From assembly GCA_040954595.2 (NCBI GenBank), contig CM082589.2:11234894-11298893 (forward strand): 64,000 nt of DNA, given 5' to 3'. The stretch is from Balanoglossus misakiensis. Lineage: Eukaryota; Animalia; Hemichordata. The translations under genes were made by a program, and so were the position numbers. Below, piece after piece: positions 3,601-56,597 of this stretch (positions within the stretch are counted from its first letter, which is position 1; each line of letters opens with the position of its first letter). Under the pieces are notes generated by a model. The model saw nothing but the letters and a program-made list of their open reading frames with translations. It did no database searches and was not told the DNA's origin.

Positions 3601-4208
3601 CGAGCACCTGCTGGATAATTTAATTTTTGCCCTTCTTGTCCCATGATTATATGTGTAATATCTCATTTTCAATGTGTTTACATGTATATATGCAGAATCC
3701 ATTTCAAACTAAGTGGGCATATTGTAGCGCCAATCTTATTTCTTAATCCGCACCACAGAACTGATGCAAGGTTTAGGACTGGAAATGTATGTGGCCACTG
3801 GCCGACACCCCGGGCGAGAGGTCTCCAATTATTTTCAGCACGTAGTGTGCTTCCCGGTTGATAACATCAATATGTGTAAATGCCAAAAACCCGACCTATT
3901 GTAATACCAGTCAAATTTTCTTTGTCATTTACCATTTTTCTCTTGCATATGAACGTTTTTCTTAAAGAGTACATACCCATATACATTTGTATGGGAGCAC
4001 ACATCCCCACCCCCTGCCAACAATAATTGGACAACTTTATTCTTCTTATACTTCTTTTTAGTCTAAACATTCATATAGAGAAGGCAACATGTTCTTGAAG
4101 CTGCTGACTATGGAAATATCATGAAGTACATTTTCCTAGTTGTACATGTACAGTATGATAGGCCCAATGTACCAATTGGAGATGTGTGCCTTACAGGCAA
4201 CATACATG

Positions 4209-6747
4209 TAGCTCTGCATGGCCTGGTTAATCAATGTTGACGCAAAGGTTGACCCTACCAAACACTCAAAATTAATGGGCACGACACTGGCCACTAGCTC
4301 TGCATGGCCTGGTTAATCAATGTTGATGCAAAGGTTGACCCCACCAAACACTCAAAACTGATGGGCACGACACTGGCCACTAGCTCTGCATGGCCTGGTT
4401 AATCAATGTTGACGCAAAGGTTGACCCCACCAAACACTCAAAATTGATGGGCACGACACTGGCCACTAGCTCTGCATGGCCTGGTTAATCAATGTTGACG
4501 CAAAGGTTGACCCCACCAAACACTCAAAATTGATGGGCACGACACTGGCCACTAGCTCTGCATGGCCTGGTTAATCAATGTTGACGCAAAGGTTGACCCC
4601 ACCAAACACTCAAAATTGATGGGCACGACAATGGCCACTAGCTCTGCATGGCCTGGTTAATCAATGTTGACGCAAAGGTTGACCCCACCAAACACTCAAA
4701 ATTAATGGGCGCGACACTGGCCACTAAGCTCTGGCCTGGCTAATCAAGGTTGACGCAAGGGATTACCCCACCAAACACTCAAAATTGATGGGCACGACAC
4801 TGGCCACTAAGCTCTGGCCTGGTTAATCAATGTTGACGCAAAGGTTGACCCCACCAAACACTCAAAATTAATGGGAACGACACTGGCCACTAGCTCTGCA
4901 TGGCCTGGTTTATCAATGTTGACGCAAAGGTTGACCCCACCAAACACTCAAAATTAATGGGCACGACACTGGCCACTAGCTCTGCATGGCCTGGTTAATC
5001 AATGTTGACGCAAAGGTTGACCCCACCAAACACTCAAAATTAATGGGCACGACACTGGCCACTAGCTCTGCATGGCCTGGTTAATCAATGTTGACGCAAA
5101 GGTTGACCCCACCAAACACTCAAAATTGATGGGCACGACACTGGCCACTAGCTCTGCATGGCCTGGCTAATCAAGGTTGACGCAAAGGTTGACCCCACCA
5201 AACACTCAAAATTGATGGGCACGACACTGGCCACTAGCTCTGCATGGCCTGGCTAATCAAGGTTGACGCAAAGGTTGATCCCACCAAACACTCAAAATTA
5301 ATGGGCGCGACACTGGCCACTAGCTCTGGCCTGGCTAATCAATGTTGACGCAAGGGTTGACCCCACCAAACACTCAAAATTGATGGGCACGACACTGGCC
5401 ACTAGCTCTGGCCTGGCTAATCAAGGTTGACGCAAAGGTTGACCCCACCAAACACTCAAAATTGATGGGCACGACACTGGCCACTAGCTCTGGCCTGGCT
5501 AATCAAGGTTGACGCAAGGGTTTACCCCACCAAACACTCAAAATTAATGGGCGCAACACTGGCCACTAAGCTCTGGCCTGGCTAATCAATGTTGACGCAA
5601 GGGTTGACCCCACCAAACACTCATAATTGATGGGCACGACACTGGCCACTAGCTCTGGCCTGGCTAATCAATGTTGACACAAGGGTTGACCCCACCAAAC
5701 ACTCATAATTGATGGGCACGACACTGGCCACTAGCTCTGGCCTGGCTAATCAAGGTTGACGCAAGGGTTGACCCCACCAAACACTCAAAATTGATGGGCA
5801 CGACACTGGCCACTAGCTCTGGCCTGGCTAATCAATATTGACGCAAGGGTTGACCCCACCAAACACTCAAAATTGATGGGCACGACACTGGCCACTAGCT
5901 CTGGCCTGGCTAATCCAGGTTGACGCAAGGGTTGACCCCACCAAACACTCAAAATTAATGGGCGCGACACTGGCCACTAAGCTCTGGCCTGGCTAATCAA
6001 GGTTGACGCAAGGGATTACCCCACCAAACACTCAAAATTGATGGGCACGACACTGGCCACTAAGCTCTGGCCTGGTTAATCAATGTTGACGCAAAGGTTG
6101 ACCCCACCAAACACTCAAAATTAATGGGAACGACACTGGCCACTAGCTCTGCATGGCCTGGTTTATCAATGTTGACGCAAAGGTTGACCCCACCAAACAC
6201 TCAAAATTAATGGGCACGACACTGGCCACTAGCTCTGCATGGCCTGGTTAATCAATGTTGACGCAAAGGTTGACCCCACCAAACACTCAAAATTAATGGG
6301 CACGACACTGGCCACTAGCTCTGCATGGCCTGGTTAATCAATGTTGACGCAAAGGTTGACCCCACCAAACACTCAAAATTAATGGGCACGACACTGGCTA
6401 CTAGCTCTGCATGGCATGGTTAATCAATGTTGACGCAAAGGTTGACCCCACCAAACACTCAAAATTAATGGGCATGACACTGGCCACTAGCTCTGCATGG
6501 CCTGGTTAATCAATGTTGACGCAAAGGTTGACCCCACCAAACACTCAAAATTAATGGGCACGACACTGGCCACTAGCTCTGCATGGCCTGGTTAATCAAT
6601 GTTGACGCAAAGGTTGACCCCACCAAACACTCAAAATTAATGGGCACGACACTGGCCACTAGCTCTGCATGGCCTGGTTAATCAATGTTGACGCAAAGGT
6701 TGACCCCACCAAACACTCAAAATTAATGGGCACGACACTGGCCACTA
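4209..6747. repeat. Satellite array, 83-86-bp unit, ~30 copies
   Basis: Unit tagctctgcatggcctggttaatcaatgttgacgcaaaggttgaccccaccaaacactcaaaattaatgggcacgacactggccac, with starts at 4209, 4295, 4381 and so on. Some variants lack the internal cat. Confidence 0.98.
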
Positions 6748-7749
6748 CATGTATTTGTGATATTTTACATGGTTAACCACGCCTTGATAAAAGTAATCAT
6801 AAGAGAACTTTGTTTCCAAAGTTAGGGGAGAATAATCTAACGGGAGATGGGAGTACCTCAGGCTACTGAGCTCGTTCCCTTCCTCATGTACTTTACTGGG
6901 CGTATTTGATGTACTATAATAATTCCGGACAATAAATGAACGTAAATCAAATACGTTTCTCCGTGGATCACGGTTCTCGTCAGAGCCCGTTACCTCATCG
7001 CTACAGATTCCCCGATGCATGAACAATCATGAGAAACCAGCGGTAATACAAGTGTCACGATTGAGTTTTAACGATCATAGATCTTGTTTATGATTACGTA
7101 AGAAGTCATTCACTTATATGGTTTTAGTCCAGTATTGACATTGGTACTTGACCCAGAGTAAACAACATTGTGTAATTGATACATGTCAGAACGAGATAGA
7201 GATATCACGCGCTAAGTTCATGTTTAAGAAATATCAAGATGACGTGTTCCTTTTATGACTTAATACTTGACTAACGTATTAATAAGGTGTGGTGAAATTT
7301 GAGATCACACATTTATCACCGGAGATCCGTGATGGGAGTCAACGAGCATGGATCGAGTCGTGTAATTCTTACGTGTGACCAGTAATAAACCAGAACTTTG
7401 TGTTACTCGGAAAACTTCTTGCAAGTCTCTGTCTACGAAAGGTTTACGATCTGCCGGGTACCTCTCTCGGACTTTATGAATATGTTGGGTGGAGAAGGAG
7501 ATGAAGAGAATGTACGCCGTCAGCTTTCGGACGTGGCTGATTCCCCACAGAAGCCGATGAGGTAAACGTCCGGAGGACGACCGGCCGTAACAACAAACTG
7601 CATGAATTAAAGTTCAACAATCCTTAGAAGACAGGAACGTCAGAGGTTGAATCTTGATGGGAAAAGGCGAGGTATCGCTGGTTATCATCGGCGTACTGAT
7701 GAAATTGTAGGATGTGGGGACGAATCGGTTTACTATAAAGTTGGGCTAT

Positions 7750-11001: not shown

Positions 11002-12952
11002 CGAGTACTACCACTTAGCAGTGGTTCAAGATGATCCTGTTGAAATTGTAAGTTTTTCTCTTATTTCTTTTTTGAACCTGGACCTGGTAATTAGCTTAGC
11101 TTGAGTAATATTGATTATTGGACCTGGTTTGATGTCTTAATATAACAACTACAGAAGAATCTCTGGACACAGTGAAATACACTCCAGGGTTATGGTAATG
11201 ACTGACAAATTGTCAGTTTAAAAAAGTAGACAAAGAACTCAGTTAAATATTATAATAAAAATATGCTTTTAATATAAGGAAAAGGTACAATTGATATACT
11301 TGTAATTAAAACATAAATATAATGATGAAATTCTTCAACTGTTCTGTAGTTGCACCAGTATTTGTATAAGCTAAAAATGTTGACTTCTGGCAGGACAACT
11401 CAAACAGATATTAAACTTATTTATAGTACTTCCACTTCATGACTTTGTTCAAAAATTTCCCAAACTTATTTCATTGTTGATGAGTTGTCACCTCCGAACA
11501 ACACAAAAAGGAACAGTTTGTATAAAAAAGTAATTTTGCATGAATCTTAAACATACATGCACAAGTTGAGTGAATAACACAATATAATCATATTCTACAA
11601 TGAATTACAATATCAAGATTAAGGGTTTCACATATGACATTACATTGCTACATTTTATATACATGAATTTAATTTGAAAAATTTCCATTGATCTATAACA
11701 CCATGAATAATATAAAAATATGCGAATAAATACTTTGAATTATTATATATACATGTCAGGTCTCAAAGTGAGTAACTATATTTCCATTCACCTATGAACT
11801 GGTTATTAACCAAATGAAATGATAGGATCTTTTATTTTGAGGATCTTATAATTGTGATCATACACATCCATATTCCAAAATTCGCATGCCAAACAAATAT
11901 CAGATTTATACGGCCAGTTGTAAAGACAGTACAAGGGGCAAAAAAATTGATAATAGTTAATCATCATCTCCCTTCTTTTACAGTCTTGGAGAATGGTGAC
12001 GGTTGAAGTCAAATTAAAGAAAAATATCAAGAAAAATATCAAAATTTGAAGCACTAATTCAGGAGGATATATATCATCGGGAGGTAGTCACTGAATATAT
12101 TGAGAGAAATAATTCATAATCTATGCATTTGGATGAAAAGACCTTCTATCTGATCAAGTTAAGGATAAATGCTGCCTTGTATGAATACAGAAGCAAGTCA
12201 GCATGCAAAGGGAGAGCTGAATTGGTACACTGTTAAATTTGTCCTCCAAATTCAACAAAAATATGTTGTTGTTTAGGAATTCTTGTATTATCATATCTTT
12301 TTCATTACACAATACCTTATAATAAGTCATAACAAATTTTTAAGGAAAATTCTTTAAAATATGTAAAATATATAGCCTTATAACCAACAACAACATAGAA
12401 AACATTTTCCAGTTTCCGAAAAATATAAATCTTGAGTAATTTCAACAGAAAAAATATGAAAAATCAGTAAAACTTGTGAATTTTGTATTTTTTTCAAAAG
12501 AAAAAAAAAACATGTAGCACTCATGTGTCTCATGCAGTATTTATTCAATTGAAAATTCACGTTTGATAATTTTCTGTCCGCAAAGATAGGTTACTTTGTA
12601 CAGTTGAAAAAAACGAAGTCATGTTATACATTTATCAAAGCATTTCATTTCAGCTGTTCAAGATAATTAACTAGTGTCACCCCTTTTATAGTTGAACAGT
12701 TCTTCATAAAATAATGAAAATAAATATAAATGTTTTGAAATTATAACTAAAATCGGTCGAATTTTCAGATAGCATGATAATATCATTTTTTACAAGAGAT
12801 TTATTCTACTGTCATGTGTTTTTTCATATTAGTCGGTCATTTTTGCAGAAAAGAGTTAATTTCAAATAAAACAATGAATATCCAATAAGAAAATGTTGGA
12901 ATTAAAGGCAGAGAATGGAAATGCGATTTTTTATTGGGAAAGGACTATGTGT

Positions 12953-14381
12953 CAGTGGCCAGACATGTCCGGACGCTCAGGAAGGCCGTCAGTGGCCAGA
13001 CATGTCCGGACGCTCAGGAAGACTGTCAGTGGCCAGACATGTCCGGACGCTCAGGAAGACCGTCAGTGGCCAGACATGTCCGGACGCTCAGGAAGGCCGT
13101 CAGTGGCCAGACATGTCCGGACGCTCAGGAAGACCGTCAGTGGCCAGACATGTCCGGACGCTCAGGAAGGCCGTCAGTGGCCAGACATGTCCGGACGCTC
13201 AGGAAGGCCGTCAGTGGCCAGACATGTCCGGACGCTCAGGAAGACCGTCAGTGGCCAGACATGTCCGGACGCTCAGGAAGGCCGTCAGTGGCCAGACATG
13301 TCCGGACGCTCAGGAAGACCGTCAGTGGCCAGACATGTCCGGACGCTCAGGAAGACCGTCAGTGGCCAGACATGTCCGGACGCTCAGGAAAGCGCTCAGT
13401 GGCCAGACATGTCCGGACGCTCAGGAAGACCGTCAGTGGCCAGACATGTCCGGACGCTCAGGAAGACCGTCAGTGGCCAGACATGTCCGGACGCTCAGGA
13501 AAGCTCTCAGTGGCCAGACATGTCCGGACGCTCAGGAAGACCGTCAGTGGCCAGACATGTCCGGACGCTCAGGAAGGCCGTCAGTGGCCAGACATGTCCG
13601 GACGCTCAGGAAGGCCGTCAGTGGCCAGACATGTCCGGACGCTCAGGAAGACTGTCAGTGGCCAGACATGTCCGGACGCTCAGGAAGACTGTCAGTGGCC
13701 AGACATGTCCGGACGCTCAGGAAGGCCGTCAGTGGCCAGACATGTCCGGACGCTCAGGAAGACTGTCAGTGGCCAGACATGTCCGGACGCTCAGGAAGGC
13801 CGTCAGTGGCCAGACATGTCCGGACGCTCAGGAAGGCCGTCAGTGGCCAGACATGTCCGGACGCTCAGAAAGGCCGTCAGTGGCCAGACATGTCCGGACG
13901 CTCAGGAAGACTGTCAGTGGCCAGACATGTCCGGACGCTCAGGAAGGCCGTCAGTGGCCAGACATGTCCGGACGCACAGGAAGACTGTCAGTGGCCAGAC
14001 ATGTCCGGACGCTCAGAAAGGCCGTCAGTGGCCAGACATGTCCGGACGCTCAGGAAGACTGTCAGTGGCCAGACATGTCCGGACGCTCAGGAAGGCCGTC
14101 AGTGGCCAGACATGTCCGGACGCTCAGGAAGGCCGTCAGTGGCCAGACATGTCCGGACGCTCAGGAAGACTGTCAGTGGCCAGACTTGTCCGGACGCTCA
14201 GGAAGACTGTCAGTGGCCAGACATGTCCGGACGCTCAGGAAGGCCGTCAGTGGCCAGACATGTCCGGACGCTCAGGAAAGCTCTCAGTGGCCAGACATGT
14301 CCGGACGCTCAGGAAGACTGTCAGTGGCCAGACATGTCCGGACGCTCAGAACGCTCTGTAAGTGGGGCTGGACATGTCCGG
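12953..14381 (+). repeat. Left subterminal tandem array, 37-bp unit, ~38 copies
   Basis: Unit cagtggccagacatgtccggacgctcaggaag(g/a)c(c/t)gt with period 37 (12953, 12990 and so on). Copies are nearly identical. Confidence 0.98.
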
Positions 14382-15253
14382 ACACTACACATTTAACACA
14401 AGTATGCCTGAACATGCAGATATATTTACAAAATAGAAATTCTTTATTAAAAATGAAAAGAACAACCATCAAGAACACTGTGGCCCTTTCTGGTGATTAT
14501 ACATAAACAGGTGTACACCAAAATTAAAACTACATTATATGCAAACATCACCAAAGTTGTACAACATCCTACTTCAATAACCATGGTGAACATGCCTACC
14601 AAAGCTTAAGGCAATCTGACGATCAAGTTAAAAGAATACAATGTTTATGAATAACTGCAAAATTCTCCTAAGAGCACAGATAATGCCAAAAATCGGCCAA
14701 AATTGCAAATTTTACAATAATTTGAGACCTTACATTTTTCATTCCAATATATCACATTATAAAAAAATTCGACTGGACATGCATATCAATTATTCAAAGC
14801 AATCTGACCAGAAGTTCTGGAATTTATTATTACAGAGTTTTGACAAGTTTTACATTTTCCCACTAATTTGCAATGACAACTTCATTTGAATGATATCTAC
14901 AGCCAGGTCTGCATCTACACACCAATTATGAATGTGATACACATAGTGGATTCCAATTTTTTGGTTTGGATGAACATACATACATACACATAAATACATG
15001 TACATACAGACCTATGTACATGCATGACGTTGACCTAACGATCCAATGAGGTAAAAGTAAGTAAAGTGGTTCTGTGGCTGTCATATTGACTCTTGAAAAA
15101 GTATGTTGCTGCGATATGAATGTCATGGCTATTTTTGTGACACTGTATTGTCCATGAAAAATTTCTGAAAACATAATCACTCATGGACGCAAAACAAAGA
15201 ATTTACCTTCTTTTATCTAAGTTGATATCCACATAGGTTTATAAAAGCTAAAA

Positions 15254-18200
15254 TTATGGATCATCCTCTTCCCAATCCATATTCTCTTCTGAATAATTCT
15301 CAACTGCTTGTGTCTCGCAACGAATACGGCAAAAGTCTGTCTTCATTTCATCATTGTCAACACCAACAGCATTTACACCATTGGCTAATGCTGTTACCAA
15401 GGCATTTCCTGAAAACAAAAAAATAGAGAAAGAGTTTCAGCTGTGCAGTAACACTACCTTGTACTTATGTTACAATGTCACCAAAGTAACACACCAGCCA
15501 CCAATCAAACTGATAGGAATGCGATGTGAATTAAAGTTTTATGAAGGTGTTCAGTAGTAATGTGTAACTGCTCACAGGGAATACAACTATACCACATAGT
15601 CCTGTTTAAACATCAGTGCACTTAAATTTCCTTTGGTGGCTAAATATCTATTAAAGTGGAACGTTGTGATCCGTTTTTGAGCCAATTCTGCGAAATGCGA
15701 TTAAAAAGTACTATGAAAAACGTTGGTTTCATTCACTTTCACTTACGCATAACAGAGCTACAGCCAGCCAAAAACTGCGCGAACCCGGAAGTGAGTGACG
15801 TCAGCAACTGTTGTCCGCTGCCGACGCGTTGGAGCGAGCTTATGCTTATACACGCCTGCACTCACGCGACCGACGACGTTAGCATAGCAACATATTCTCG
15901 GGTAGTAGGCTACAATTTTGAACCAGAGATTCCCTTCTACGACCAAGCGACTGAATTTTACAGAGGACAAAAGTTCATGCAGTTCTGATCTCCGATGTGT
16001 CCCGTTTGTCAAGGCTTACACTTGGTGTGGTTTCAGTGAAACCATAGACCCTAGAGTCTATGGTGAAACAGACAATGCTGCAATTAAACAATACCCTCCC
16101 TCGTTGTCTCTCCCTCGTTGTCACCTTTTCGAACCACTTTTCTTACAAAAATACTTAGTCACCTTTTATGGAGTTGAAAAGAACGCAGGTGCATCGTCCT
16201 GCTCTCCAGGTGTAGTACGTCCGTAGTATAATGGAAGCCAATGCTATAGTTATTGTATGCATGTTTCGTCTCTTGAAATGTATTAAAACTGCCCTTTTTA
16301 GTTGCTTTCATTTGATAACTATGCGATCGTCAATAAATGGAAATTAAACCCAAATACGTGTACCAAAAAACGTGCAGGAAGGATTTAATACGGTACGTTT
16401 ATTATTATCAGCGGCAGTTAGAACAACTTTGTATAGGCCTTACGGTTTGTTCATAAACGTCGACATGCATGGCATCATGGACATTGCAGGGTCTATGTCT
16501 GCACGCATCGACAAATACAATACTAGTACACGAAGAGCACTGCCTTTGAAAGAAACTTATCCCCGTCGATTTTCCGAATATGTTTTTAAAATCATGAACT
16601 TGACATTTCGCCATGTCAGATCCGCGCAAAATGTGTCTGTTTATTGGAAATGACACGTCGAACGTGTAAGTTGCTGACGTCACTGTAGTATTTTCAACGC
16701 GCGTCTACTGCTTGCGCAGGAAGTGAAAGTGAATTAACCCATCGGAACGTTGCCGTTTTTGACACCCGGATTGTACTTTGAAGCCCAAAATTGAGGGTGT
16801 CGTTCCACTTTAATATCTATTAATACTCTCAGGGATAAATATCATGTTTAAAGAATCTGAGAGGCTTTTTTTGAACAAGCAAGTCAGCTTAAATATTTCT
16901 CTGCATTACCTGATTATCAGGCAGTGAAACCAAACCAAAACAGACTTTGATAGTCCTGCACATTGCTGTATCATTGTACAAACTGCGGAATGGTATTTTA
17001 AAGTGTACAATACTCATCAATGAATTCTGCGTACTTGTCAAACATGTACTCTCAGCTGTGACAGCTGTCATATTTTTGGTTGTTTGTTTTGCTAGAGATG
17101 CTTATTTTTTTAGAATCATCTATATCATTGAAGCTTAGGTTTTTAAGTCAAATGAAGAATCTACAACCTTGTTTAAAAATTCTGGATCAGATGTCATTGT
17201 TGAAACATACCTGCGCCACATCTGCCGTCTAGCATCCATGATCCTTTATGGGTAAAATTCTTAATTATAATGTCATAGATTTTCCTGGGTTTCTGGTCGG
17301 CACAAACCATGCGTCCCTCAGCATCTCTGTCTGGCATGTCACTGGTAACAGTCCAAAAATTATGGTGGCCAGCCACAGACACTTGATCGTTGGTAACTCC
17401 ATTTGTTTCTGATGCATATGCAACAACAAATGCCTTGACAGCAGGTGTCATCGTGACTGTAGATACTATAGACATGAGAAGAGAAGAAAAGTATAAGAAA
17501 TATACCCTATACAATGTACATGTATTGTATCTGGTGCCATTTGATATTTACTTTTGCATTATGCAACAAGTAGCATCCATGGCATACAACATGACAGCAA
17601 TTTGAATTTACATTCCTATTCTGGAAAAATGAGATGAAAAAATAAACCAACAGCAAAGCTTATATGAGTAGAGCACAAATGTCTCATAGGAAGGCAAGTA
17701 TATATGCTCAGCTTTTCTCAGATCTTACCTGGTTTAGTATTTTCGATGTAATAAAATGCCTCCTCTATTTTTCGGAAGCATCTGGCTTCTTTCAGCGTAC
17801 TTCTTACCATAGACAACTTTTCAACGTCACAGAGTATCACTAGTCTATAGCTTCCTAATTTTGTATTTAGGTTCTTGACAACAATTGTCAACTCCCTCAG
17901 GTCTTCAGCTGTCCATTCCTGGATATTAAAAAGATCACACCAAAAAAGAATAAATCAGTTAGGATTTCCTTAGTTATTCAGAATATTTGTAAATACCAAA
18001 CTTTGACGGGCAGCGAACATGTATACTTCACACCAAATTTGAACTTGGTTGGCAATGTAGAATTTGGGAAGAAGTCATTCAAAGGTTTTCAGAAAATCCA
18101 ACATGGCTGCCAGGTCATGTGACTTATTAAATATTCATGAGTCACTGCACGACAACTCATTGGCCCCTATCAAGTTTGAGCCCAGTAGGTGCTGTGGTTT

Positions 18201-21200
18201 TTCAGATTTAGCTGGCCGAGAAAAATCAGGGAAGAAAAATAATAAGAACAAAAAATTCCAACAAAACCAATAAAGTACTTACAGCTGGTAAATCCATGAG
18301 GATTAACTCAAATCCTTCAGCGGTGACATCATTATCATCTAGATATTGTGGGTTTAGTTTAAGAACTTCAGTGTTGAACACTGCCCCTTGGCACTGGTGA
18401 CTGCCAGAAAAAACAGGGCAGAGCGCTTTCCTGGCAGCTTCATCCTTTGATGCAGCTCTCCTCAGTCGTCGACAATAACCCTTAAATGGTTCCGGTGCTG
18501 TTGGCTTGAAGTTTAGTGTAGCAAAACGTAGAAGACTACTACGATTTGTTGCATCTGGATACCTTTTCATAGCCTCGCTCCAATCTTCAACATCCATCTC
18601 AGAAATGAATGCCCGCTGAATTAGCAAGAGTTTTGTTAAAGTTTTGCTTTCTTTCACCATGTCATCAAGGCTGGTCCTCAGGTCTAAAACATCACGAACA
18701 AGTTCTTTTATGGTGTCTTCATCAAGGGAGCGCAGATGTTTAAACCGATACGGCTTTATATCAGGTTTGCTGATTCTGTCCTTTTTTAGCAGTCTCTGTT
18801 TTTTTATGTCACCTTGATCGTGAAGTTTGAACAGCTTCATAAACAAGGAATACAGATCCTCATCATACGATGCAATCATACATGCCATATCCACTTCCTG
18901 TGTGATCTTTTCCTGACAGACAAAAATAAAACAAATTAGTTATTTTCAGTAATTTAGATTCAGCAAGTAGCAATAGCCACCAATTTGCAAAGGAAAAACA
19001 AGTCAAAGCCACACTGTGAACATAGGTGACAATTGGCCAAATTTCCGATAAATCTTTTCATTTTAAACCACTAATGCAATGCACATATTGATGGATGCCC
19101 AGTGATTGGATCTGCTTATGAATATCAGTCAAACTAAAATTTACTAGGGGCTGCTTGGACTGCACTATTTCATCTTCAGTAATGAATGGTGTTTGTTAAA
19201 ATCTAGCAGTAAAAGTCACTCCAAGGTGCTATAATTGTTCTATGTAACTTAGTACCACTGCCAACATAATCAACATTGAATTACCTCATTTAGAATTATC
19301 TTGCATGAATTTTTCCACTCAGCCTGAGTGACATTCTCGGATATTGCTGATCGATTGGCACGGCAGATAGCCACCTATAATAAAAAATGTAACATAATGC
19401 CATTATGATCATGTACTGTAGTATACAGTGGTATGACAATGCAAGTCCAAACATGCAAAAATATAACAACTGAGAACATACCAGTATTAAAATTTGTGTT
19501 TGTGATCAGAGTTTATAAGGCTTCTCTCTTGGTGACCATTCACACACAAAATTGTGAAAGGCCAGGGATTGAGTGACCCTGCTTTATTTGATAGAATCTG
19601 AGCTCCTGCTCAAACAAACAGCATCAAAACCCGAATAATTTCTGACACCAATATCACATATTTACCTTGTCTTTAAACGACAGTCCATGGCGGAATTCGC
19701 CTGTTTTATTGTGTCGAACCCCAAGCCATTGTCTTTCTTCTTCACCAAGAGCAGCATACACAACACAGTTTAGCTTCTTGAACCGTTCTTCATTAGGGTG
19801 ACGCTTAGATAATTCCTGTGATGCAAGAAGTGTGTGGTTTCCTCCAATGACCTCATACTCATAACCATTAACCTGTTTAACATTTTAGGAAAATTAGAAA
19901 AATTAAGTGTCAAATCGACTTGTTACCAACTTGTGAACAATATACATATATAAATTTCTTCAAGGAAAAATTTTGCACTTTGACTCACCTTTGTCTTGTC
20001 AAATTGGGCTGTACTTGCTAACCCTTTCACTGATAGGCAGAGAGGCTGATAAGCTTCGTCCCTATAAACCTGCATGGACTTGATAAGACTTTTTAGGAAA
20101 ACTGGGTCCTGTTCTCTTACTTGTTGACTTCCAGTTTCTAAGGCACGTGTGCTGACCAAAAAATGACCTTGAATGCAAGAGGAACATGTTTTAGATCAAC
20201 AGACAATTTTCATCTTAACAGAGCTGTATGTTTTGGGGTATAATGATTATCTGTAAAAGTTCAATCCGCTGATCAGAACATCCAACTACTGAGAAAAGCA
20301 TGCAGATTTGAGTGTCCCATAGTAATGTTACAGAAACTAGTGGGAACACCATTTGCCTAAGCAGCACCTCCAACAAAATGAGTCTAATTTGGTGGTGCTT
20401 TTATTCTGTATTGGTTGAGGAGTGGGGATCATGACCTATGAGTGTCCAATTATGTACTATTGCAACATCATATAGATGTTAATTTCACATAAAAAAAATA
20501 GAATATAGTCACTGTAGCACTAGTAACGTTGTTATTTAGGATTTGCTCATTCTCTACTAAAAAGTAAAGTTTCCAGTAAATGGGAAAATTCATAACCTGC
20601 AAGTTGTTCAAAATTTTTCATGATTTGTGAATAATGTTTCTTGGAGCCTTTTTAATGAGTATTTAGCTTACAGTGGAACAGCATTACTAGTCTCACTATA
20701 TTTTTGAGCTCACAAAGTAACCTCATCCAGCTTTTTTGGGAATCGATTGGAAATCAAATTCAAATACAGTAACTTACCACAAAATGCACGCTGTACATTT
20801 GTTTCAACACTTAGTCTCTCATCATCTTGTGGTTTTTTCTTCAGTGATAAAGCACTCACAGATATGTCTGAAAGCTTGCGCTTCTTTGACCTGGCTCTGC
20901 TAACTAAACATGATTGAAAGAGACACATAATTGCTATGACAAAAACAACAATAGATCAGAATCAGAATACAGTGCCTCTTCATCCAACAAAATCATTATA
21001 CCCGAGATATTTCACATAGACTTAGCTATATTAACACTTACACTTTATCGAATGCTCTCTCTTTGTCAGCTCTACAGTGTGATTTTCCACTTCTTGGCGG
21101 GGTGCTGTCTTCTGACATACTGGATTCACACTCATCTTCTTCATCAATGGATGAAGTTGATTTCTCCAAGTTGACCTGCCCTCTCAGGGATTGAAATATT

Positions 21201-22061
21201 TCAACCATTTCCCCCGAAGAACAGGCTTCTCTAAACTTCTTGCTAAAGGGTGACTTGTTCCATTCGAAGAAATCTCTCTCCAAAATAAACCTAAATCCAG
21301 CTTCTTCGCTCCCTGTTACAAATTTAAACTGAAAAAAGAACGAATGGTTATCGATCAGAAATAGTCTTAGTTTTTGGGTAGTTCTCAGAAAATTATGAGT
21401 GCTGTACTATGGTCGAAAACGTGTAAACGTAGCTGTATCGCGGGGGTACAGGTCTGTGTGTTTCCGGTGTTACACGGCCGTGTACCGCCGGGAACACACG
21501 TACACAGACGTGTACGCAGGGCTAGGGTACCCACTATTCTCAATATACAGGCTCGGGCCGTTACTGTGGACGTACGTTCCCAGGCAAAACCTCGGACGAA
21601 CTCTGGTTTTGTGTCGTGTCTGAGCCTCGAGCTACGTAACAACTCGCTGTGGAGTCGTTGTACCATGGCTCTCCCTCGACAAGGGGATCGGATAGCGACT
21701 GTCCTTGAACGTGTAGTCGAGTGTACGCACATGGCTACGAACGCACAGAACTGCACTCTGTAGCTCTGTGTACAGGTCTGTGTCGCCGGGCTGGTCCCCG
21801 GCGTGGTGGAGGCCGTGTAACGCCGGGAACACACAGACCTGTGCGCAGAGCCAAGTCCCTCAACAGGGACTTCGCCTATATGTACCAGTATTACAAAAAT
21901 ATGCTTACCTTGAGCTTACCGTCGGCTACAGACATCGACTTAATCGCACCGAACTCGGTACCCTTCTTTCTATTCTTCATACGGCACCGCTTACCATTTT
22001 CCAGGCAGTAGAGATACACTTCGTCATCTACTTCTTCGAGCCACCACTTTCTCTTGCCCAT
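15254..22061 (-). CDS. Transposon-borne ParB/Srx-like domain plus beta-class amino-methyltransferase-like protein (~752 aa, 10 exons)
   Basis: Exons (GT-AG, phases consistent): 22061-21909 (ATG in ACCATGG), 21328-21042, 20899-20778, 20167-19989, 19872-19666, 19374-19285, 18912-18283, 17918-17729, 17456-17211, 15408-15254 (TAA). ParB-like part: QVRE..LKSLIKSM..YQPLCLSV..YEVIGGNHTLLA..RHN. MTase-like part: LILMDLPAEW (motif IV position), QKPRKIY, WMLDGRCGAGNALVTALANGVNAVGVD (motifs I-II). Confidence 0.8.
15655..16809. mobile_element. Non-autonomous Kolobok-like element in the last intron of the ParB-MTase gene
   Basis: TTAA|AGTGGAACG ... CGTTCCACT|TTAA. Internal inverted motifs: gtgacgtcagcaact/agttgctgacgtcac and ttcactttcactt/aagtgaaagtgaa. 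Confidence 0.8.
18030..18272 (-). repeat. Fragment of the dispersed repeat family at 40458-43930, inside a transposon intron
   Basis: caccaaatttgaact...atggctgccaggtcatgtgact...actcattggcccctatca matches 41440-41640. Confidence 0.75.
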
Positions 22062-22129
22062 GGTGAAATGTTGGACATCTCTCTACTAGGAAGCGTCTTA
22101 TATAGGTGAAAACTGCATTCATCTTAGAG

Positions 22130-22353
22130 CGTTAAACGGTTGACAAGGCTTGGATCACCACTGCTTTTGCAATTGTAGGTGTTAATTGTTTACCCGACGC
22201 TTGGCAATGCTCTACAGGGACGACGCTGTCACTTCCTGTTTACTTCCAGGCGCGCAAGCATCGTTTGGGCGAGTTTATTTCCAATGTTGAGTCCAAAGCA
22301 TTGGGCAATCTTTGATCAACTTTTAACGCGCAACATCGGCGAAACTTTTGAAC
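22130..22353. promoter_or_regulatory. Duplicated block upstream of the ParB-MTase gene (copy 1)
   Basis: cgttaaacggttgacaaggcttggatca...gtcacttcctgttta...gcgcaagcatcgttt...gttgagtccaaagca is also present at 24313-24582. It is CpG-rich and begins ~70 bp from the ATG. Confidence 0.5.
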
Positions 22354-24312
22354 AAAAATATGACAAGTCCGATGTTCTGCCAAGGCAGAACCATTTCCGG
22401 TTACCGCAAAAATAAACAAATAAATAAATACGCGGTCAATACACTTGTCTACGGCTCTCGAGCTCCGCGCAGTAACCCCCAAAAGAAATGGTGCTGGTCT
22501 TGACATCTTGATATCAACGATGCGAATTTTAACTTTTTCCTCCTTGGATCAATCCTAATTGTCCACATTCTCATGAAGTTTTGCTATACCCCTGTATATA
22601 TATGGCGGAATAAATTGCACACTTAGACAATGCACTGTGTTCTGGATGTCACTGTACAACTTTACATGTATTTTAGCACAACATTGAAAACTCGGACTAC
22701 TTCAGGTGGTCTGCGGGTAAAATGGGACGCGTGATGCTGACCACAACCATTTCATTATTTTTCCTTTTTTGGGCTGAGACGTAATGCAACTGTAGCAACA
22801 CCTGATTTGCAAGCCTACACTAAACTGAACGTGGAAGTGCTCGTCGACCCTACCAACATTTTCTAGCTCTGCGCGCGTACTGCAGGTCTGTGTGTTCCAC
22901 AGACCTGTGCGCAGAGCCTGACGCAGAGCTACACATTTTCGAGAGACATATCATTCTATTTTAGTATTTAACGGAATTTTACACAAAGAGGTTTGCAATT
23001 GTAACCATGCAATTTTATTCTAAAATGGCTTTAAACATCAAATTAGTAGCTACCAGGTTTCGCGCCATATGAGTGCTTACGCGTACGCTGTGCTTCGGAC
23101 CCAGCTGCCCACTGATCACATATAGACGGACGCCGCGCGGGCATCGTACGCGCACGCTCGCGTTGCAGAGCGATATACCAAAACTACAGTCACTCCACAC
23201 TGTACAGCTACATGTGATGTGAGAATCCACCGCAAATAGACTTTTATCTAGAGTAAAAGTAAACTTGGAGATTTGTGTGTTATTTTTTATGACGAGTGAA
23301 GTTGATCGTATAGTTTCGAACTTTTCACCAAAACACGTACACCGCGGCCCGCTAAATATGCAGCGGCGTTGGCTGGTTTATCACAGCGGCCCAACTGGCC
23401 TACCTGGGGTCTATATTAAGTTGGTGGAAATATGGGACATGTAAAATTGTTTTGCTGCCTTCACTTTTCATGTAATCTGACGATATCAATGTGCAAAACA
23501 GGTCGATTTGTTTCAAGGAATAGAGAAATCGATGGTCAGTGTACGGGTGTCAATCGGTTTCTTTTGCACCACGGAAACATAGACCAAAACATAGCTACCA
23601 TGACAAGTGAAAACTACTAGTATTTTATGTACCAGCCGCAGACAATGGTAGATGATAGAGAAGGTAGCGAGTGATCTTTTTCGAACATCCATGTATACAA
23701 GTCGTTTTTCAGGAGCCGTGCAACTTCCTAGGGCAACCTCGAGCTGCAGGCGAGAAGTTGTTCGCCAAGAGCTGTGAAAACGACGAATTGCATTTTTAAT
23801 GGGGAATGCCATGTATTCCAAAACCATTAATGTGACAGGATTTCAAAAAGTCTAAGAAACTTTCATTGTCGGCGAGGTCAAGTCAGTGCAGTCGGTCAGG
23901 ACATGTACGCGTTTCCGCGCAAATATTTATAAACGGTCGCTGCGACAGAATCTCAGCCTAGGACTTATAGAGTGTGACTTGTTTCCACATTTCGATGACT
24001 GGAGTTTCAGTTGTCAAGCGCTGAACTGGCCCGAAACCATTTCGGGATTTCTGTGTTTTTTTAGTTCGGCCGGTAAAGGTGACAAATGTCAGTTTGCACG
24101 AAAACAATTGCCCTTTTAATCGATCTAATCGTGACATAGCTGTGGTACTCAGCTTACCGGTATGGAATTTACCAAGAGAAAATGTCATGGAACCATAATT
24201 TTAAAGATCTTTACTGTAAATGCTAACGTTGTAAAATGTAAAATTTTCTGCATCTGGATTATTGATCTGTCCTCATTACGTCACACAGGTGGTGATTCAT
24301 GCGATAACGCCA

Positions 24313-24582
24313 CGTTAAACGGTTGACAAGGCTTGGATCACACCACTGCTTTTGTTATTGTTTATCCGACGCTTGGCAATGGCTCCACAGTGCCGGCGCA
24401 CCTGAACCTGTACTGGTTGCAGCTGTCACTTCCTGTTTATATAATTATAAGAAATGCAATGACTGACGCGCAAGCATCGTTTGAGCGAGTTTATTTCCAA
24501 AGTTGAGTCCAAAGCATGGGCAATCTTCGGTCAAACTACCTTGGTCAAACTTTAACACAAAACATTTGCGAAACTTTTGAAC
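24313..24582. promoter_or_regulatory. Duplicated block upstream of the transposase (copy 2)
   Basis: Direct-orientation copy of 22130-22353, ending ~220 bp before the transposase ATG. Confidence 0.5.
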
Positions 24583-24800
24583 CCCCCAAAACCCAAACTA
24601 ACAAACAAACAAACAAAATGACAGACTTTATACAAGCTCGAAGTTCATCTTTCGACACTTCCGTGTGACGTATGCCCGGGGACGTACGCATGGGCTCGTC
24701 CTACCCCGACCCCCCTCGAAAATAATAAACAGGTCAATGAGACGGACATCGAAAATCGTGTATAAAAAGTCGAGCTTGGCCAGTGACAGGGCAGTAAATC

Positions 24801-27800
24801 ATGGCGTGCACATCTCGAAGTAGAAGTCCAGGAGCCAGCAAAACCTTTTCAGGAGATTCCTCTTGTGAACTCCTGTTTGACGAATCAACTGACAGTGGAA
24901 GTTCAGGAGCCAGTGAATTTTTTTCAGGAGATTCCTCTTGTGAACTCCTGTTTGACGAATCAACTGACAGTGGTACCTTGCCAGATTCTGACGGTGAGTC
25001 CATCGGTAATGATGACAGCATTTCAGTTGACCTGCCAGTGCCACGCGATTTTGACCCAGAGAACGTTGACAGAAGTAAGGGTCGTGATGAGTGCCCCGGG
25101 TCAGATCAAGACGACACAACAGAAATTGTATACGATGATTATAGTTCTGACAGCGATGACGAGTCATCGGCTAGCAGTAGCAATAGCTACCTGGTAGGGA
25201 ACGAAGAGTTCGGCGTCGAGCAACCGACCCACAGGCGTCCGACGATGTCATCCTCTACACCGGCAAAGAAGAAACGACGTATTGGTGAAGTGGTTCGAAA
25301 CCCAGCCGAGGTTCTGATGAAATGTTGCTGCGAAGACCTGTGTCTTAGAAACGTTACAGTGAACGACATTATAGCCTGTGATCGAAGAATGAAAAACATG
25401 AACGAGTGTAGACAAAAACAATGGATACTTTCATGTATCCGCGATAATTCATATAAGCGGTTCATAAAATCGAAACCTGTGGTAGAAGTGAACCTAAGGA
25501 TCGCCGGAAGAAGTATTTGTCGTTTAGCCTGGCAAATTGCCCACAACGTTTCTGACTATCGTTTTGAAGAATGCATAAAGCTTTTTCGGGATGATGTTCA
25601 CTCTGTGAGACACGGCAACGAAGGTCGAAAACTCATGCGAGACAAAACGTCGGCTGCAATAGCATGGATGCGGTTTTATTTTGAACGAATGGGCGATTAC
25701 ATGCCGAACAACGCAGGCAAAGTCATTCTACCGTGTTCGTGGACAAAGTTGATGGTGTATGAAAGGATGAAGACGGAATTCGTGGAGAGATGTTTACCAA
25801 AAGAAGCTATCATCTGCTATGATTACTTTTGTAAAGTGTGGAAATTGCATCTCTGTGAGTTCGTTATAGGAAAGGTAAGTACTGTTCTGCAGCATGTAAA
25901 TTGTAGTTGCAATGATTGTGGTGGTGGTCAGTGGACGCTGCTTGACGTCCGCACAGACAGTGTCGTCAACCGAGTAGTACTCGCTATTTGCTGCCTAAGG
26001 CTGTATTTTATGACGATAAATGTCTCTTGTTCTAAATGAAAGTGTAACTTTTTTTATGTAGACCCACTGCGCCATTCTTTCTTCATATTGTTACAGTAAT
26101 TTTCTTGTTTTTATTTCTGTCTCAGGGACATGAGTTTGTTTGCTGTGATACATGTGTTCAACTCGATGAACAGTATGCCAAAGCGAAGACAGAGTATGAG
26201 AGAAATCAGATAAAGGCACTGGTTGCTCGTCATTTAAGCCAAGTTGAGTAAGTATCTTCAGAATATAATTCCTATCAAATACAATTTTAAAAAAGAACAA
26301 CAAGTCGTTCAACTTATAAGGGTAATTATTTTGTTATATCAACATATTGCATTGCCATAAATTTTGATGTATTATCCACACCATATACTGTTCTAGTCCA
26401 TGTAGCTTGTTAAAATGACTTTTCCCTATTTATTTGTTATAGGAATGAGCGCAAACGCTTCCACTATCACCGAGAGAAAGCTGAGAAGGAGCCGGATGAA
26501 ATAATGGCAATAATACAAGATGGAATGGATCAAAACAAGACTGATTTACCTCATCTTGTTAAAGAGGACAAGGCTACATCAAATTTATGGAGATTGAGAA
26601 CGCATGTCACAGGTACCATTTACATGTAATAGTCAAATAGTTTTATCTACATTCAGTGAATTATTTATATCGAATGACAACACATACTGTGGATGAGGTG
26701 TGTTACAGTTAGTGAAATTCTGTCTAAGTGGGATTGTACCCCAAATGACGCATTCCCAGATGAAACACATGCGCTATTGTTTATAAAATATTATATTTTT
26801 CTTTACACAGGTGACATTCTCCATACTGGAGTTGCCAGTGGAAAGATCCCGTATGTTTTTATTGATGTCAACGAAATTCCACACGACAGCAACTTGACTC
26901 TAAATATTCTGTTGGAGGTATTGGTTGCTGCCAAAGACAGACTGGCGAAGGCATTATACTTGCAACTAGATAACTGTTTTCGGGAAAACAAGAACCGTTA
27001 TCTTCTCAGTTTAATGGCCTTGATGGTCCAGCTGGAGATCTTTGATGAAGTAAGTATACACCTGTTTTATTATTACAATATGTTTTGACACAAACCAGCT
27101 GAACACAGAAACAAACTTTGGTTGTCTGATAGTTAATTTACAGGCGTTGCATGTAATTTCAGGTGACATGGTATTTAATAGTACATGTATATATAGGTTT
27201 ATTTACAACGTGCACAATCACAGTTTCTGTGGTGCAACCAAATTGATGAAAATATGGAGTAGATAGTCGACTTATTGCAGCTTTACAAATATTTTTATTA
27301 CACATCTATGTGAATTTTCTGCCGGTGGGTCATACACATGAAAACGTTGACCAAATGTTTTCAAAAATATCTGCGGGGTTGAAGAGAGCCAATGCCTACA
27401 CACTGGAAGGTGAGTCTAGGTTTGAATGTCTGAGTACAGATAAGGTGTGTGTGATAGACCTCTACACGTTTGCTACTTATTCTTATATTTTTAATATTGT
27501 CGAAACACTACCTTGTTGACTGTAATTGCCAATATTTAACCCCTTCCACAAAATACTCTGCCCATTCAAGTATTTATTGCTGTTAAATCCCAAGAGTGGA
27601 ATCAAATGTTTCAGAATATGTGATCAACTTTGCATTAAAAATCTGATGTTAAGGGGTTAACAGCACTATTATAAATAGAACTTTACATTCAGTAGTAAAT
27701 CAGTGCTTGTAAGTTGTAAAATTATATCCTGAAATTGGAAAATGGAAGACACTCTTCTGTACATACATGTATATCCTCTTTCAGATCTGATGACAATAAT

Positions 27801-29702
27801 CGCCAGCAGCTACACACCTACCATCAATGTCAAGCTACTGAAGAGCACCTTGAATATTAAAGAATGGTTGATTCCGCATATACATACAAGATTCTCTGGC
27901 CACTCACGTCCACACAATTTCCGTTTCCGAAAAGTAGATGGCAAGGCGTATATGAACTACAGGGAATGGTCGACTGACGCATGGCAGCCACTGAATAAGG
28001 ATGGTGCTGATTCACCAGGTCTTCTTTGCCTTAAGGTATGTGTCACACACGCATCACATGAGTAGGCTATTTTCATGACCTGCACATGACATTCGATCCT
28101 TTATTGTACAACAATGTACTTCCATTGGTATGAATTCATTCAGTCTGCTAAATAATAATACAATGAAGAACGAACTGAATTACCAAGGTGTACATGGAAA
28201 TGTCCTATTGCCATAGACCATTTGCTCTGTGCTGAATAACGTAATATTGTGTGACCATTGTATTTCTTACAGACTATCCCTGACATCAATGTGCCACCAC
28301 AGTGGGTTGTTCCCAGTTTATTGAAGCTGGATGTGGATAACCTTACCAGAAGTTTACCAAATGGGTTTAGGCACAGAATGCCTAGTCAAGCAGTTGAAAA
28401 CTAGAAAGAGTTCATGGCCAACATTAAAGACCTCGAGAAGGTAAATAATTTAACTGAATCCTTGTTGTGGTAACTTTTTCTCAAATATTTTTTCCTAGAC
28501 TGATAGGAAGAGGGTTTAAATGCAATTTTCACTCAAAGTTTGTGCCCCTGAGTGGTATTATCATTGATCACATCAGATATAAATCAACATTATATTCCGA
28601 AGTTTTATGTTTCAGATTAAATAAAACCATTCTCACATTTATACATCCAGGTTCCTCCTACCACTCCTCAAGAATGGCACCTTCACATTTTGAAGGAGGC
28701 AGCAGAAAGAAGGAGACAAGGCAGAGCACATGCGATGGAATGTATTCCTGATAATATCAAGAAGATAAGGGATAAATTGACTGTCCCATGCCCTCCAGTA
28801 AGTGTAAAATTGAAGTGCACTTTTTTTCTTGAAAGTTTGTTAATTGATATCTCTGTTTGCTGGTGCTTGCAATGTGAACTTGTATACACAGTACAATGTG
28901 TGTTCGTACTGTCTTGAAATTCTGAAGAATCTGTACAGAATCAAACATTTGTTTTTATAGGTAATAATAGGAGCCCAGGGTAGGGAAGTGCCAGCTCCAG
29001 TTCAGGAAATGGAGGATTTCAGCTCAGTGACGAGTGGAATGCTTGTGGCAGTATGGGCACCAGACAACGATGCCAGGCCCCAACTCGCAAAAGTTCTCGA
29101 TAGAGGGAAGGGAATGCTGAAAATACATTGGCTTGTGGGGAACTATAATGGCGCATGGAAGGAGGCATACCATGGCGTGGGAGCCCGAAGGACAGCATGG
29201 CTGGATGATATTCCAGTGCAGTCTTGTATTTTGTGGGACTTTGCTTTCACAAAGAGGAACCACCTTAAGAAGGCAACAGTGGACGAATTAAAAAAGAAAT
29301 ATTTCGAACTTGACACAATAAGGTAAGACCCCCTCTTTGCATTCACATAAATTTAATGTATTTGTTTTGTTTCCTCTGTTTATACATCACTCTTTATTAG
29401 GATACTCTGCCATATGGAGATGATGTCAAAACAGGTCATCTTGTATGTTTGATGCATTTTTCTTATTAATATACTGGTTTTTGCTTTATAAAATAGATTG
29501 AACAATACAGTTGCAGAGGAGTTATGGTGTGTTGTGAAGAATTGATGAAAATTACAAAAGCATATATGCTTACTTATTTGAAGAAATGAATTTGTGCTAG
29601 GGTTTTAGCCATGTTTATTGAAGTTTTCATAATTACTTCCTGTTATTTACAATTTGCAGTGATGATGACGATAGTGATGGTGCTGCGAACAGCCAGATGT
29701 GA
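24801..29702 (+). pseudogene. Sola-like (DUF7869-type) DDD transposase, ~890 codons, 10 exons, damaged
   Basis: Exons: 24801-25874, 26126-26247, 26443-26612, 26811-27049, 27304-27409, 27785-28035, 28273-28440, 28651-28797, 28961-29322, 29660-29702. Motifs: CCDTC..H, IIQDGMDQNKTDLP, HVTG, LYLQLDNCFRENKN, FLPVGHTHENVDQMFS. Lesions: CAC instead of CAG acceptor at 27301-27303, and an in-frame TAG at 28402-28404. Confidence 0.85.
27540..27656. mobile_element. Small TTAA-flanked MITE (piggyBac-like ends) in a transposase intron
   Basis: TTAA|CCCCTT ... AAGGGG|TTAA. Confidence 0.5.
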
Positions 29703-30033
29703 AGACCCTCCAGGGCTGACTGAATGAAGTCTCTTGTTATTTGTTTGTACAGACAATTTTTGATCAAAAATAATGATCTCTAGCACCGTTTGTAAGACTG
29801 CCATGCCACAAAACAGTTTATTTGGCCCTTTCCTTAATATATTTTTTACATTTCATATTTATATGTGGCTGCTTCCCAATGTCACCCCTGTTTTTTATTC
29901 TGGTGTATATCTAATTCTGTGCAATCCTCAAATGGGACCGCAGTGCCCTTGATGCTATTGTTGTAAATAAAGGCATTACAGTAAACAAATGAGAAGTTGT
30001 TTGTTAGTTCATATTGTCTTGGCTCCTTCCTCA

Positions 30034-30590
30034 CTGAGTTTCGGGACATGTCTGGCCACTCAGCTTGCTGAGTTTCCGGACATGTCCGGCCACTCAATGG
30101 GCTGAATTTCCGGACATGTCCGGCCACTCAGCTTGCTGAGTTTCCGGACATGTCCGGCCACTCAATGGGCTGAATTTCCGGACATGTCCGGCCACTCAGC
30201 TTGCTGAGTTTCCGGACATGTCCGGCCACTCAATGGGCTGAGTTTCAAGACATGTCCGGCCACTCAGCTTGCTGAGTTTCCGGACATGTCCGGCCACTCA
30301 ATGGGCTGAATTTCCGGACATGTCCGGCCACTCAGCTTGCTGAGTTTCCGGACATGTCCGGCCACTCAATGGGCTGAATTTCCGGACATGTCCGGCCACT
30401 CAGCTTGCTGAGTTTCCGGACATGTCCGGCCACTCAATGGGCTGAATTTCCGGACATGTCCGGCCACTCAGCTTGCTGAGTTTCCGGACATGTCCGGCCT
30501 CTCAGCAAGCTGAGTTTCCAGTGAGTTGAACGGCTGGACATGTCTTGAAACTCAGCCCGTTGAGTGGCCGGACATGTCCGGAAACTCAGG
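30034..30590 (-). repeat. Right subterminal tandem array, 34-bp unit alternating as a 68-bp dimer, ~14 copies plus 2 inverted copies
   Basis: Units ctga(g/a)tttccggacatgtccggccactca(gcttg/atggg). The reverse complement tgagtggccggacatgtccggaaactcag resembles the left-array unit. Orientation flips after ~30520. Confidence 0.95.
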
Positions 30591-31186
30591 CAGCTTGGTA
30601 ATGACATTACTTTGACTGGTAGGGCATATTTTTATACAAAAGTTTATATTCTATTGATATATTCATTTTTTCACATTGAAAATTGCAAAATATTTGAATG
30701 CCGTAATTTTTTTTTTATTTTAAGTGCAATAAGCAAAAATATGTATTACTTTTTGGTGCTTACATTATTTCTTCAGAATTTTCTCAGATTGAGATTAGAA
30801 AAACAAAATCCCATAAATTATTGCAGTAAAGAGGCAAAAAATAAAATTATTAAATAAATATAGTTTTTTCTGTGGTAATAATGAGAAATAGTCTGTTTTT
30901 CGGAAACTGGGAAATGTTTTCTATACTGTTCAACATACTTTAAAGATGATTATTTATGATCATTTCATTCAGATGTTGCTAAGAGTGTAATAATAAAGAT
31001 CTGTTTCACTCCAACCAATTTAATGTGCGCTTATCACAGTACTGTCGTCTGACAAAGCATAACTATTATTGTTATCATTTATGGGATTATACCAAGCTTA
31101 TCACAGTACTGTGTCAACTCACAAAATGAAAACCATTCTAGTTATCATTTGAATTATACCATACATGTACACACAGAGATGGCACA

Positions 31187-56400: not shown

Positions 56401-56597
56401 AGACATTCCGACTGGGCTTCAGGTGGATTCGGGAAAGGTCTCTAAAACATAATCGGTCATCCAATTTTGTATACTAAATTTCTAAAAATGTAGGACATGG
56501 GAGGTTAACATACCCACAATGACTACACACAAAAAAGGGCCCAGGCGTTTCGGGGTGCGATTGTTACGTACCTTAGCTCCATCATCTGCAACCATGC

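Follow-up and report, generated by a model that had tools for sequence, protein, structure and literature searches.

What a protein that resembles both ParB and a DNA amino-methyltransferase might do inside an animal transposon is the question raised by a stretch of 64,000 base pairs (bp) from the acorn worm Balanoglossus misakiensis (contig CM082589.2), hereafter called the window. An element of 18.5 kb (12398..30921) contains, within its terminal inverted repeats (TIRs), two mirrored arrays and two head-to-head genes of 10 exons each: gene A, the cargo, on the minus strand, and gene B, a transposase gene, on the plus strand. That this two-gene transposon is real is hardly in doubt. For the cargo, the explanation preferred here, and held tentatively, is that of a non-catalytic helper, which would bind the palindromic core of the arrays and keep the ends of the element usable for transposition.

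The left TIR (12398..12423, plus strand) is 26 bp long, its exact end being uncertain by 1–3 bases, and the right TIR (30896..30921, minus strand) has the same base at 25 of the 26 positions. A 28-base pattern that takes in the neighbouring TA is found at exactly two places in the 64 kb, and in none of 100 shuffles. Sola (Sola1) transposons have TIRs, as does this element, which is likely a cut-and-paste transposon of the Sola1 kind. The target-site duplication (TSD) is ambiguous: the candidate copies, CATA on the left (12394..12397, plus strand) and TATA on the right (30922..30925, plus strand), differ by one mismatch, TA alone fits too, and shifting the element ends yields exact 2-bp duplications TA, AT or AC. 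A 4-bp TSD is given for Sola1-1_Ec32 (PMC12477816) and for Sola2. The left flank CAACATA (12391–12397) reappears 9 bases beyond the right end (30922–30937), and these 9 bases are an inverted copy of the left flank at 7 of 9 positions, so that the target site looks palindromic. No Rfam family was found in positions 11000–32000 of the window.

The left subterminal array (12951..14381, plus strand) is located 527 bp inside the TIR and consists of about 38 units of 37 bp (37.8 of them at 12951–14349), with 95% matches. The right array (30034..30589, minus strand), 306 bp inside its TIR, consists of 14.3 alternating 34-bp units of two types (30034–30519) and of one reversed unit. The unit lengths differ (37 versus 34 bp), yet the same palindromic core of 19 bp, GTGGCC(A/G)GACATGTCCGGA, is common to both arrays in mirror orientation. 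With up to 3 mismatches allowed, this core has 63 matches in the window, all 63 of them within the two arrays. It forms a perfect 14-bp palindrome in the right array, CCGGACATGTCCGG, and a palindrome of 8 bp in the left one, GACATGTC. Over 37 units of the left array, the 29 core columns contain 2 substitutions and nearly all the variation falls in the linker; as array units are not independent events, this low variation is only suggestive. The arrays are 300–530 bp away from the TIRs and have no core in common with them. Long open reading frames (ORFs) within the arrays are repeat artefacts, and the arrays were rejected as coding sequence.

Gene A (15254..22064, minus strand) has 10 GT-AG exons (22064–21909, 21328–21042, 20896–20778, 20167–19989, 19872–19666, 19374–19285, 18912–18283, 17918–17729, 17465–17211, and 15408–15254) in a single open frame of 755 amino acids (aa). 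The exon structures of both genes are predictions based on the reading frame and homology; for gene A, the choice of exons is confirmed by the alignment of the spliced product with a Ptychodera flava protein (49.6% identity over 726 columns), which also puts the window close to acorn worms. The predicted protein comprises an N-terminal β-domain, an acidic linker, a ParB-like domain, a helical region, and a beta-class amino-methyltransferase fold. A Pfam scan of 8 gene A exons gave no match, and no usable match was obtained in an Atlas search with exon 7. A phmmer search with the same exon found 162 relatives at E ≤ 0.001 among 1.84 billion representatives, and a profile search with the cargo found 5 proteins. 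Named relatives are from P. flava, Saccoglossus kowalevskii, Holothuria, Apostichopus, Lytechinus, and Exaiptasia. Twenty clusters were examined individually (17 of the 162 hits, 2 from the profile search, and 1 further), and motifs were surveyed in 175 proteins, grouped in 149 clusters at 90% identity.

The fold of the cargo was modelled on P0152, a 768-aa Saccoglossus relative that served as proxy (34% identical; mean predicted local distance difference test score (pLDDT) of 85). Residues ~198–326 of the proxy form a ParB/Srx fold, which superimposes on PadC with a Z-score of 10.8 (r.m.s.d. (root-mean-square deviation) of 2.7, 96 aligned), and on KorB and Srx, both with Z 9.1. When the helical region is included, matches are obtained with pNOB8 ParB (Z 9.9, residues 192–460) and Spo0J (Z 6.2, residues 222–447), these alignments of the predicted model reaching residues 447–460 at r.m.s.ds of 4–5. 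In ParB CTPase clamps, a helix-turn-helix domain reads the palindromic site. A Myxococcus ParB matches the proxy with E 3e-6, and no ParB among PDB sequences was found with a profile of the ParB-region sequence. The methyltransferase fold matches that of CcrM (Z 23.4, r.m.s.d. 2.6, 213 aligned) within a range of Z 19–23 that includes PvuII and the rotifer N4CMT (Z 19.6). It has the permuted order of the beta class, with motif IV before motif I (profile match E 1.8e-7), and PHROG DNA methyltransferases are matched down to E 2e-16. It is likely that the cargo derives from a phage ParB-methylase fusion, since about 600 columns are aligned in the best matches among viral models, headed by a 494-aa phage protein named ParB/Sulfiredoxin, and since ParB-methylase clusters of phages are among the Atlas leads. 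As regards common descent with algal proteins, Atlas gave streptophyte clusters (at 0.89 and 0.86), likewise as mere leads. The N-terminal β-domain (21909–22064 and 21042–21328; proxy residues 1–120) is well predicted, weakly matches PH/PTB/FERM-like folds (Z 5.5–6.0), and is absent from several relatives as annotated.

The catalytic signatures of both domains are altered. The equivalent of ParB Box II, GGNHT (19831..19845, minus strand), lacks the arginine of GxxR involved in nucleotide binding, and none of the 12 clusters that include Box II has this residue. Replacing R by A in GxxR eliminates nucleoside triphosphate binding (PMC12704722). The equivalent of methyltransferase motif IV, DLPA|EW (17913..18294, minus strand), is interrupted by intron 7 and replaces (D/S/N)PP(Y/F/W). 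Position 4 is aromatic in 0 of the 54 clusters with those columns filled, many of these rows being single-exon fragments and some being misaligned. D, N, or S is common at the first position, the first proline is mostly substituted, and 12 of the 15 clusters that read through have W at position 6, giving DxPxxW. In N4CMT, changing SPPY to APPA eliminates the activity (PMC8885841). The equivalent of motif I, which binds S-adenosylmethionine (SAM), is DGRCGA(G) (17212..17229, minus strand), where relatives mostly have DxCxGTG; the form D-x-x-x-G-x-G is present in 7 of 11 clusters, and motif I is lost in 3–4 of the 11. Even motif I is missing from the divergent relatives P0161/P0141 (Lytechinus) and P0160 (Exaiptasia), which are possibly further decayed or domesticated. 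From these residues, both chemistries of the cargo look lost or changed, and the protein is probably no longer an enzyme.

Gene B (24801..29702, plus strand) encodes a broken transposase with DUF7869 (Sola-like). The model has 893 codons in 10 exons (24801–25874, 26126–26247, 26443–26612, 26811–27049, 27304–27409, 27785–28035, 28273–28440, 28651–28797, 28961–29322, and 29660–29702). DUF7869, which we take to be Sola1, was matched in three of them (E 1.9e-25, 4.6e-13, and 2.5e-11). The product shares 68% identity with a Saccoglossus protein across 607 columns, and 40% with one from Acanthaster. The acidic motifs QDGMDQ, QLDNC, and HENVD are present and are kept in all the relatives that cover them; we infer that their acidic residues form the catalytic triad. 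The fold was modelled on the 68% identical Saccoglossus protein (P0164), with low confidence (mean pLDDT 59). Residues ~124–305 of this proxy form an RNase H-like core similar to those of integrases and transposases (best Z 8.6, r.m.s.d. 3.2, 135 aligned), and Foldseek gave no match for the model at E 0.001. The frame of gene B carries two lesions. The expected acceptor of exon 5 reads AC (27302..27303, plus strand) where relatives run on without a gap, and a contig from run X2 spanning 27037–27625 agrees with the window without any difference. An in-frame TAG (28402..28404, plus strand) occupies codon 698 and persists under both splice models: alternative splicing was considered as a rescue and rejected, as it restores the frame and leaves the stop.

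Two other features of gene B were noted. A C-terminal SH3-like barrel (exon 9, 28961–29322; proxy residues 500–600) weakly resembles PWWP, chromo, Tudor, and BAH domains (Z 6–6.5), and could be a chromatin reader that would steer insertion. Exon 1 contains an in-frame 75-bp tandem duplication (24819–24973), of which one X2 contig has a single unit; a search with this exon found none among 770 candidates.

An earlier note on the window had described matching TIRs 18.5 kb apart, inverted subterminal arrays with a palindromic core, a cargo resembling ParB and a methyltransferase, and a Sola-like transposase. The repeats and the arrays were recovered as described, both being confined to the element within the window; the two cargo folds were found in the model of the Saccoglossus relative, and a transposase of the DDE/D type in a TIR element agrees with the TIRs and with the integrase/transposase core modelled for a relative of gene B. 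Its two divergent 10-exon genes hold as an architecture, but the damage to gene B had been missed, and the description of the element as a self-contained module is weakened because the transposase of this copy is broken at the AC acceptor and the TAG.

Whether the two genes belong together was examined in relatives. The search with the transposase found 6 proteins. For the acorn worms, every transposase relative for which a contig is recorded (3 of 3) is paired with a cargo relative on a contig of equal size. In Saccoglossus, XP_077868634.1 (transposase) and XP_077868635.1 (cargo) have consecutive accessions and are assigned to a contig of 36,011 bp, and XP_077864883.1 and XP_006815821.2 to one of 576,650 bp. 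The Ptychodera pair, XP_070534490.1 and XP_070534462.1, is assigned to a contig of 53,098,162 bp with accessions 28 apart, which is weak alone. By identity to the window, the pairs rank alike for the cargo (54, 50, and 40%) and the transposase (78, 70, and 64%), and the cargo tree supports that order. One P. flava cargo cluster (at least 90% identity) has 8 members on contigs of 6 sizes, as expected of a mobile gene, although some may be haplotypes. It is thereby shown indirectly that the two genes travel together in two other species, and the co-occurrence envisaged in the earlier note does recur in acorn worms. No relative of gene A or gene B was found in viral contigs, and metagenome contigs provided one locus of 1,994 bp, without usable flanks.

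Between the two genes, a promoter-like segment, so called from its position, lies directly upstream of gene A (22130..22353, plus strand), and a second copy is found upstream of gene B (24313..24582, plus strand). The two are 66% alike over 284 columns, and this duplication hints at a joint expression of genes A and B. Intron 9 of gene A harbours a nested high-copy non-autonomous insertion of 1,159 bp (15651..16809, strand unassigned) with short inverted ends, which is presumably Kolobok-like. TTAA marks each of its junctions, followed inwards by AG...CT, and the insertion is polymorphic, one contig from run X1 lacking it. Other nested high-copy repeats occupy gene A introns at 18026–18251, which matches 41436–41666 at 76%, and at 21448–21851, with internal inverted repeats. 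In one sample, the interior of the element is present on long contigs with about 0.5% differences. The depth in run X1 is even, 51–74, in unique interior bins and reaches thousands over nested repeats; this is a contig depth and not a copy number, and the assembly may have been made from this sample, which is hence not independent support. The coverage in runs X3 and X5 is mainly that of nested repeats.

A comparable element is known from the brown alga Ectocarpus. Sola1-1_Ec32 (21.5 kb) carries a gene for a 1104-aa ParB and N4/N6-methyltransferase protein on the opposite strand, for which self-binding and self-modification were proposed (PMC12477816). As here, a Sola-type element of about 20 kb holds a ParB-like and N4/N6-methyltransferase gene opposite the transposase strand and inside the TIRs, and its 4-bp TSD is biased to end in A, to be compared with the CATA/TATA candidate. 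In contrast, its TIR is imperfect, 282 bp long and with AACCG termini, instead of 26 bp and GAAAA, and the accessory protein is longer than the 755 aa of gene A, the two being likened by their described architecture. The accessible part of the account mentions neither palindromic arrays nor the loss of catalytic motifs, both of which are found here. The combination that the earlier note did not recognise as described is thus in print with the same hypothesis (PMC12477816), and a described family with the same cargo, which the note had named as evidence to the contrary, exists in kind, in algae and not in animals. A categorically new element design was rejected on this ground.

Other known systems share parts of this arrangement. 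In the Plavaka (EnSpm) elements of the red alga Bostrychia (17–19 kb, with PAG2/PAG3), an accessory gene with a ParB domain likewise adjoins tandem inverted-repeat arrays, and binding was proposed (bioRxiv 10.1101/2025.02.11.637652). There, however, the transposase belongs to another superfamily, ParB is fused to a 2-oxoglutarate oxygenase while the methylase is a separate gene, and the arrays adjoin PAG3 and are not described, in the accessible text, as mirrored at both ends. The ParB-methyltransferase fusions of phages, found at ParB-terminase loci (PMC4738411), have the same domain order as the cargo over about 600 aligned columns and are the likely ancestor; they are intronless and predicted to methylate DNA during packaging, whereas gene A has 10 exons and both catalytic signatures are gone. 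VANC, from the VANDAL elements of Arabidopsis (PMC5735166), is also a helper encoded by a transposon, with target motifs that expand as tandem repeats in its own element, but its domains are unrelated, the backbone is of the Mutator type, and its anti-silencing role was shown experimentally while that of the cargo is proposed. The bdelloid rotifer N4CMT (PMC8885841) is, like the cargo, an animal beta-class amino-methyltransferase of bacterial origin with a similar fold. Unlike the cargo, which is borne by a transposon, fused to ParB, and devoid of the motif, N4CMT is the product of a host gene with a catalytic SPPY and a chromodomain, and acts in transposon silencing. The literature search found no animal transposon with such a cargo and no report of lost motifs, although Repbase Reports, subscription journals, and Iyer 2011, which were outside the search, may describe them. 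The animal family and the loss of both catalytic signatures are apparently what is new.

If the cargo is a non-catalytic helper, a dimer would bind the two-fold symmetric core of 14–19 bp through the ParB and helical regions, and many copies would coat each inverted array. The coated arrays would bring the ends close to each other across 18 kb, to the benefit of the transposase, or, alternatively, would shield them from host silencing in the manner of VANC. The duplicated promoter-like segment would allow the cargo and the transposase to be expressed together, and this copy would be mobile only with transposase supplied in trans. This explanation is favoured by the restriction of all core matches to the two mirrored arrays with a core far less variable than the linker, by the ParB and methyltransferase folds of the relative, by the loss of both signatures, by the pairing of the two genes and the spread of one P. 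flava cargo cluster over several contigs, and by the precedents of Sola1-1_Ec32, Plavaka, and VANC. Several points weigh against it. Transposases commonly bind their own subterminal repeats, so that the arrays need no second protein. The SAM-binding and QK motifs are retained in most full-length relatives, which fits a working or SAM-regulated enzyme, and the motif IV rows are partly fragmentary. Both folds come from relatives (34% identity for the cargo, 68% for the transposase) and not from the proteins of the window. The linkage of the two genes is deduced from identical contig sizes in bp and accession order; 0 of 3 transposase relatives from outside the acorn worms (Acanthaster, Amphiura, and one other) have a cargo partner among the 20 examined clusters, and the transposase tree leaves the four paired rows unresolved. 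Finally, there is no sign of a high-copy family or of a current burst.

It is unlikely that the cargo is a working methyltransferase whose unusual active site is DxPxxW, with W two places on substituting for the aromatic residue. Such an enzyme would write N6-methyladenine (6mA) or N4-methylcytosine (4mC) on the palindromes of the element (in GACATGTC or CCGG, for example), a hypothesis already in print for algae (PMC12477816). The beta-class fold is complete, at Z 19–23 to CcrM, PvuII, and N4CMT, and is accompanied by the PHROG matches, by the retention of motif I and QK, by the common D/N/S at position 1, and by the recurrent W; these are to be set against the missing aromatic residue at position 4 and the mostly replaced first proline. 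Motif I of the window is itself deviant (DGRCGAG) and, as mentioned, not kept by all relatives, and there is a precedent for inactive enzymes borne by transposons, all the DIRS1 copies having been called likely inactive (PMC4738411). The earlier supposition that the cargo binds or marks the arrays is weakened as regards marking, motif IV being (D/S/N)PP(Y/F/W) in no relative examined. It is quite unlikely that the arrays are binding sites of the transposase and that the cargo acts elsewhere, for instance in regulating the shared promoter or as a partner of the transposase at the chromatin or protein level. Transposase sites typically have a mirror-image arrangement near the ends; a separate role of the cargo would be in line with the promoter-like segment duplicated upstream of both genes and with the extra N-terminal domain and its weak PH/PTB-like matches (Z 5.5–6.0). 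Binding by the transposase is less easily reconciled with the distance of 300–530 bp between arrays and TIRs and the absence of a shared core, and in red algae the inverted-repeat arrays adjoin the ParB gene across families (bioRxiv 10.1101/2025.02.11.637652). A fixed relic, whose cargo would be kept for a host function or would not yet have decayed, the role in transposition being gone, is improbable. Two transposase lesions beside an open cargo frame, the low and even depth over the unique interior, and the nested insertions would be explained in this way. However, the near-identical TIRs and the 95% similarity of the array units fit a young insertion, 3 of the 6 gene A coding differences among those listed alter a residue, and the broken transposases of giant algal families are reported to be mobile in trans (PMC12477816).

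With these results, animals join the algae as carriers of the design, and relatives occur in hemichordates, echinoderms, and one cnidarian. As the whole animal family examined is without both catalytic signatures, what has been termed self-methylation may really be self-binding. The idea of a self-binding ParB-methylase becomes directly testable, since a defined candidate site of 19 bp (~50 copies at the two ends) and an intact protein of 755 aa are available. A helper would be an animal counterpart of the sequence-specific anti-silencing or end-pairing helpers of plants, whereas an active methylase, working through a new active site, would be an unrecognised source of 6mA or 4mC in the DNA of animals. 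A broader proposal, which remains doubtful, is that acorn worms, echinoderms, and sea anemones harbour an unrecognised family of phage-derived ParB-methylases on giant Sola-like transposons, which would provide animals with a parS-like system by reading the palindrome arrays at either end of the element that carries them, either as a double pseudo-enzyme that would pair the ends and shield them from silencing or as a DxPxxW writer of 6mA or 4mC.

Outside the element, a host gene on the minus strand, presumably SVEP1-like, has exons between 31187 and 39667 that encode cysteine-rich repeats and include a pentraxin-like exon; the element is located about 270 bp beyond its last exon. Two tandem arrays, of mixed 82–86 bp units at 4123–6873 and of 160-bp units at 2938–3599, are unrelated to the core of the element. 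Segments 44334–46284 and 54270–60393 are related by long inverted and direct duplications with 95–98% identity, which surround an ATGT microsatellite of 2.5 kb (49089–51599). An ORF of 440 aa at 62642–63964 resembles, by eye, the integrase of a long terminal repeat retrotransposon.

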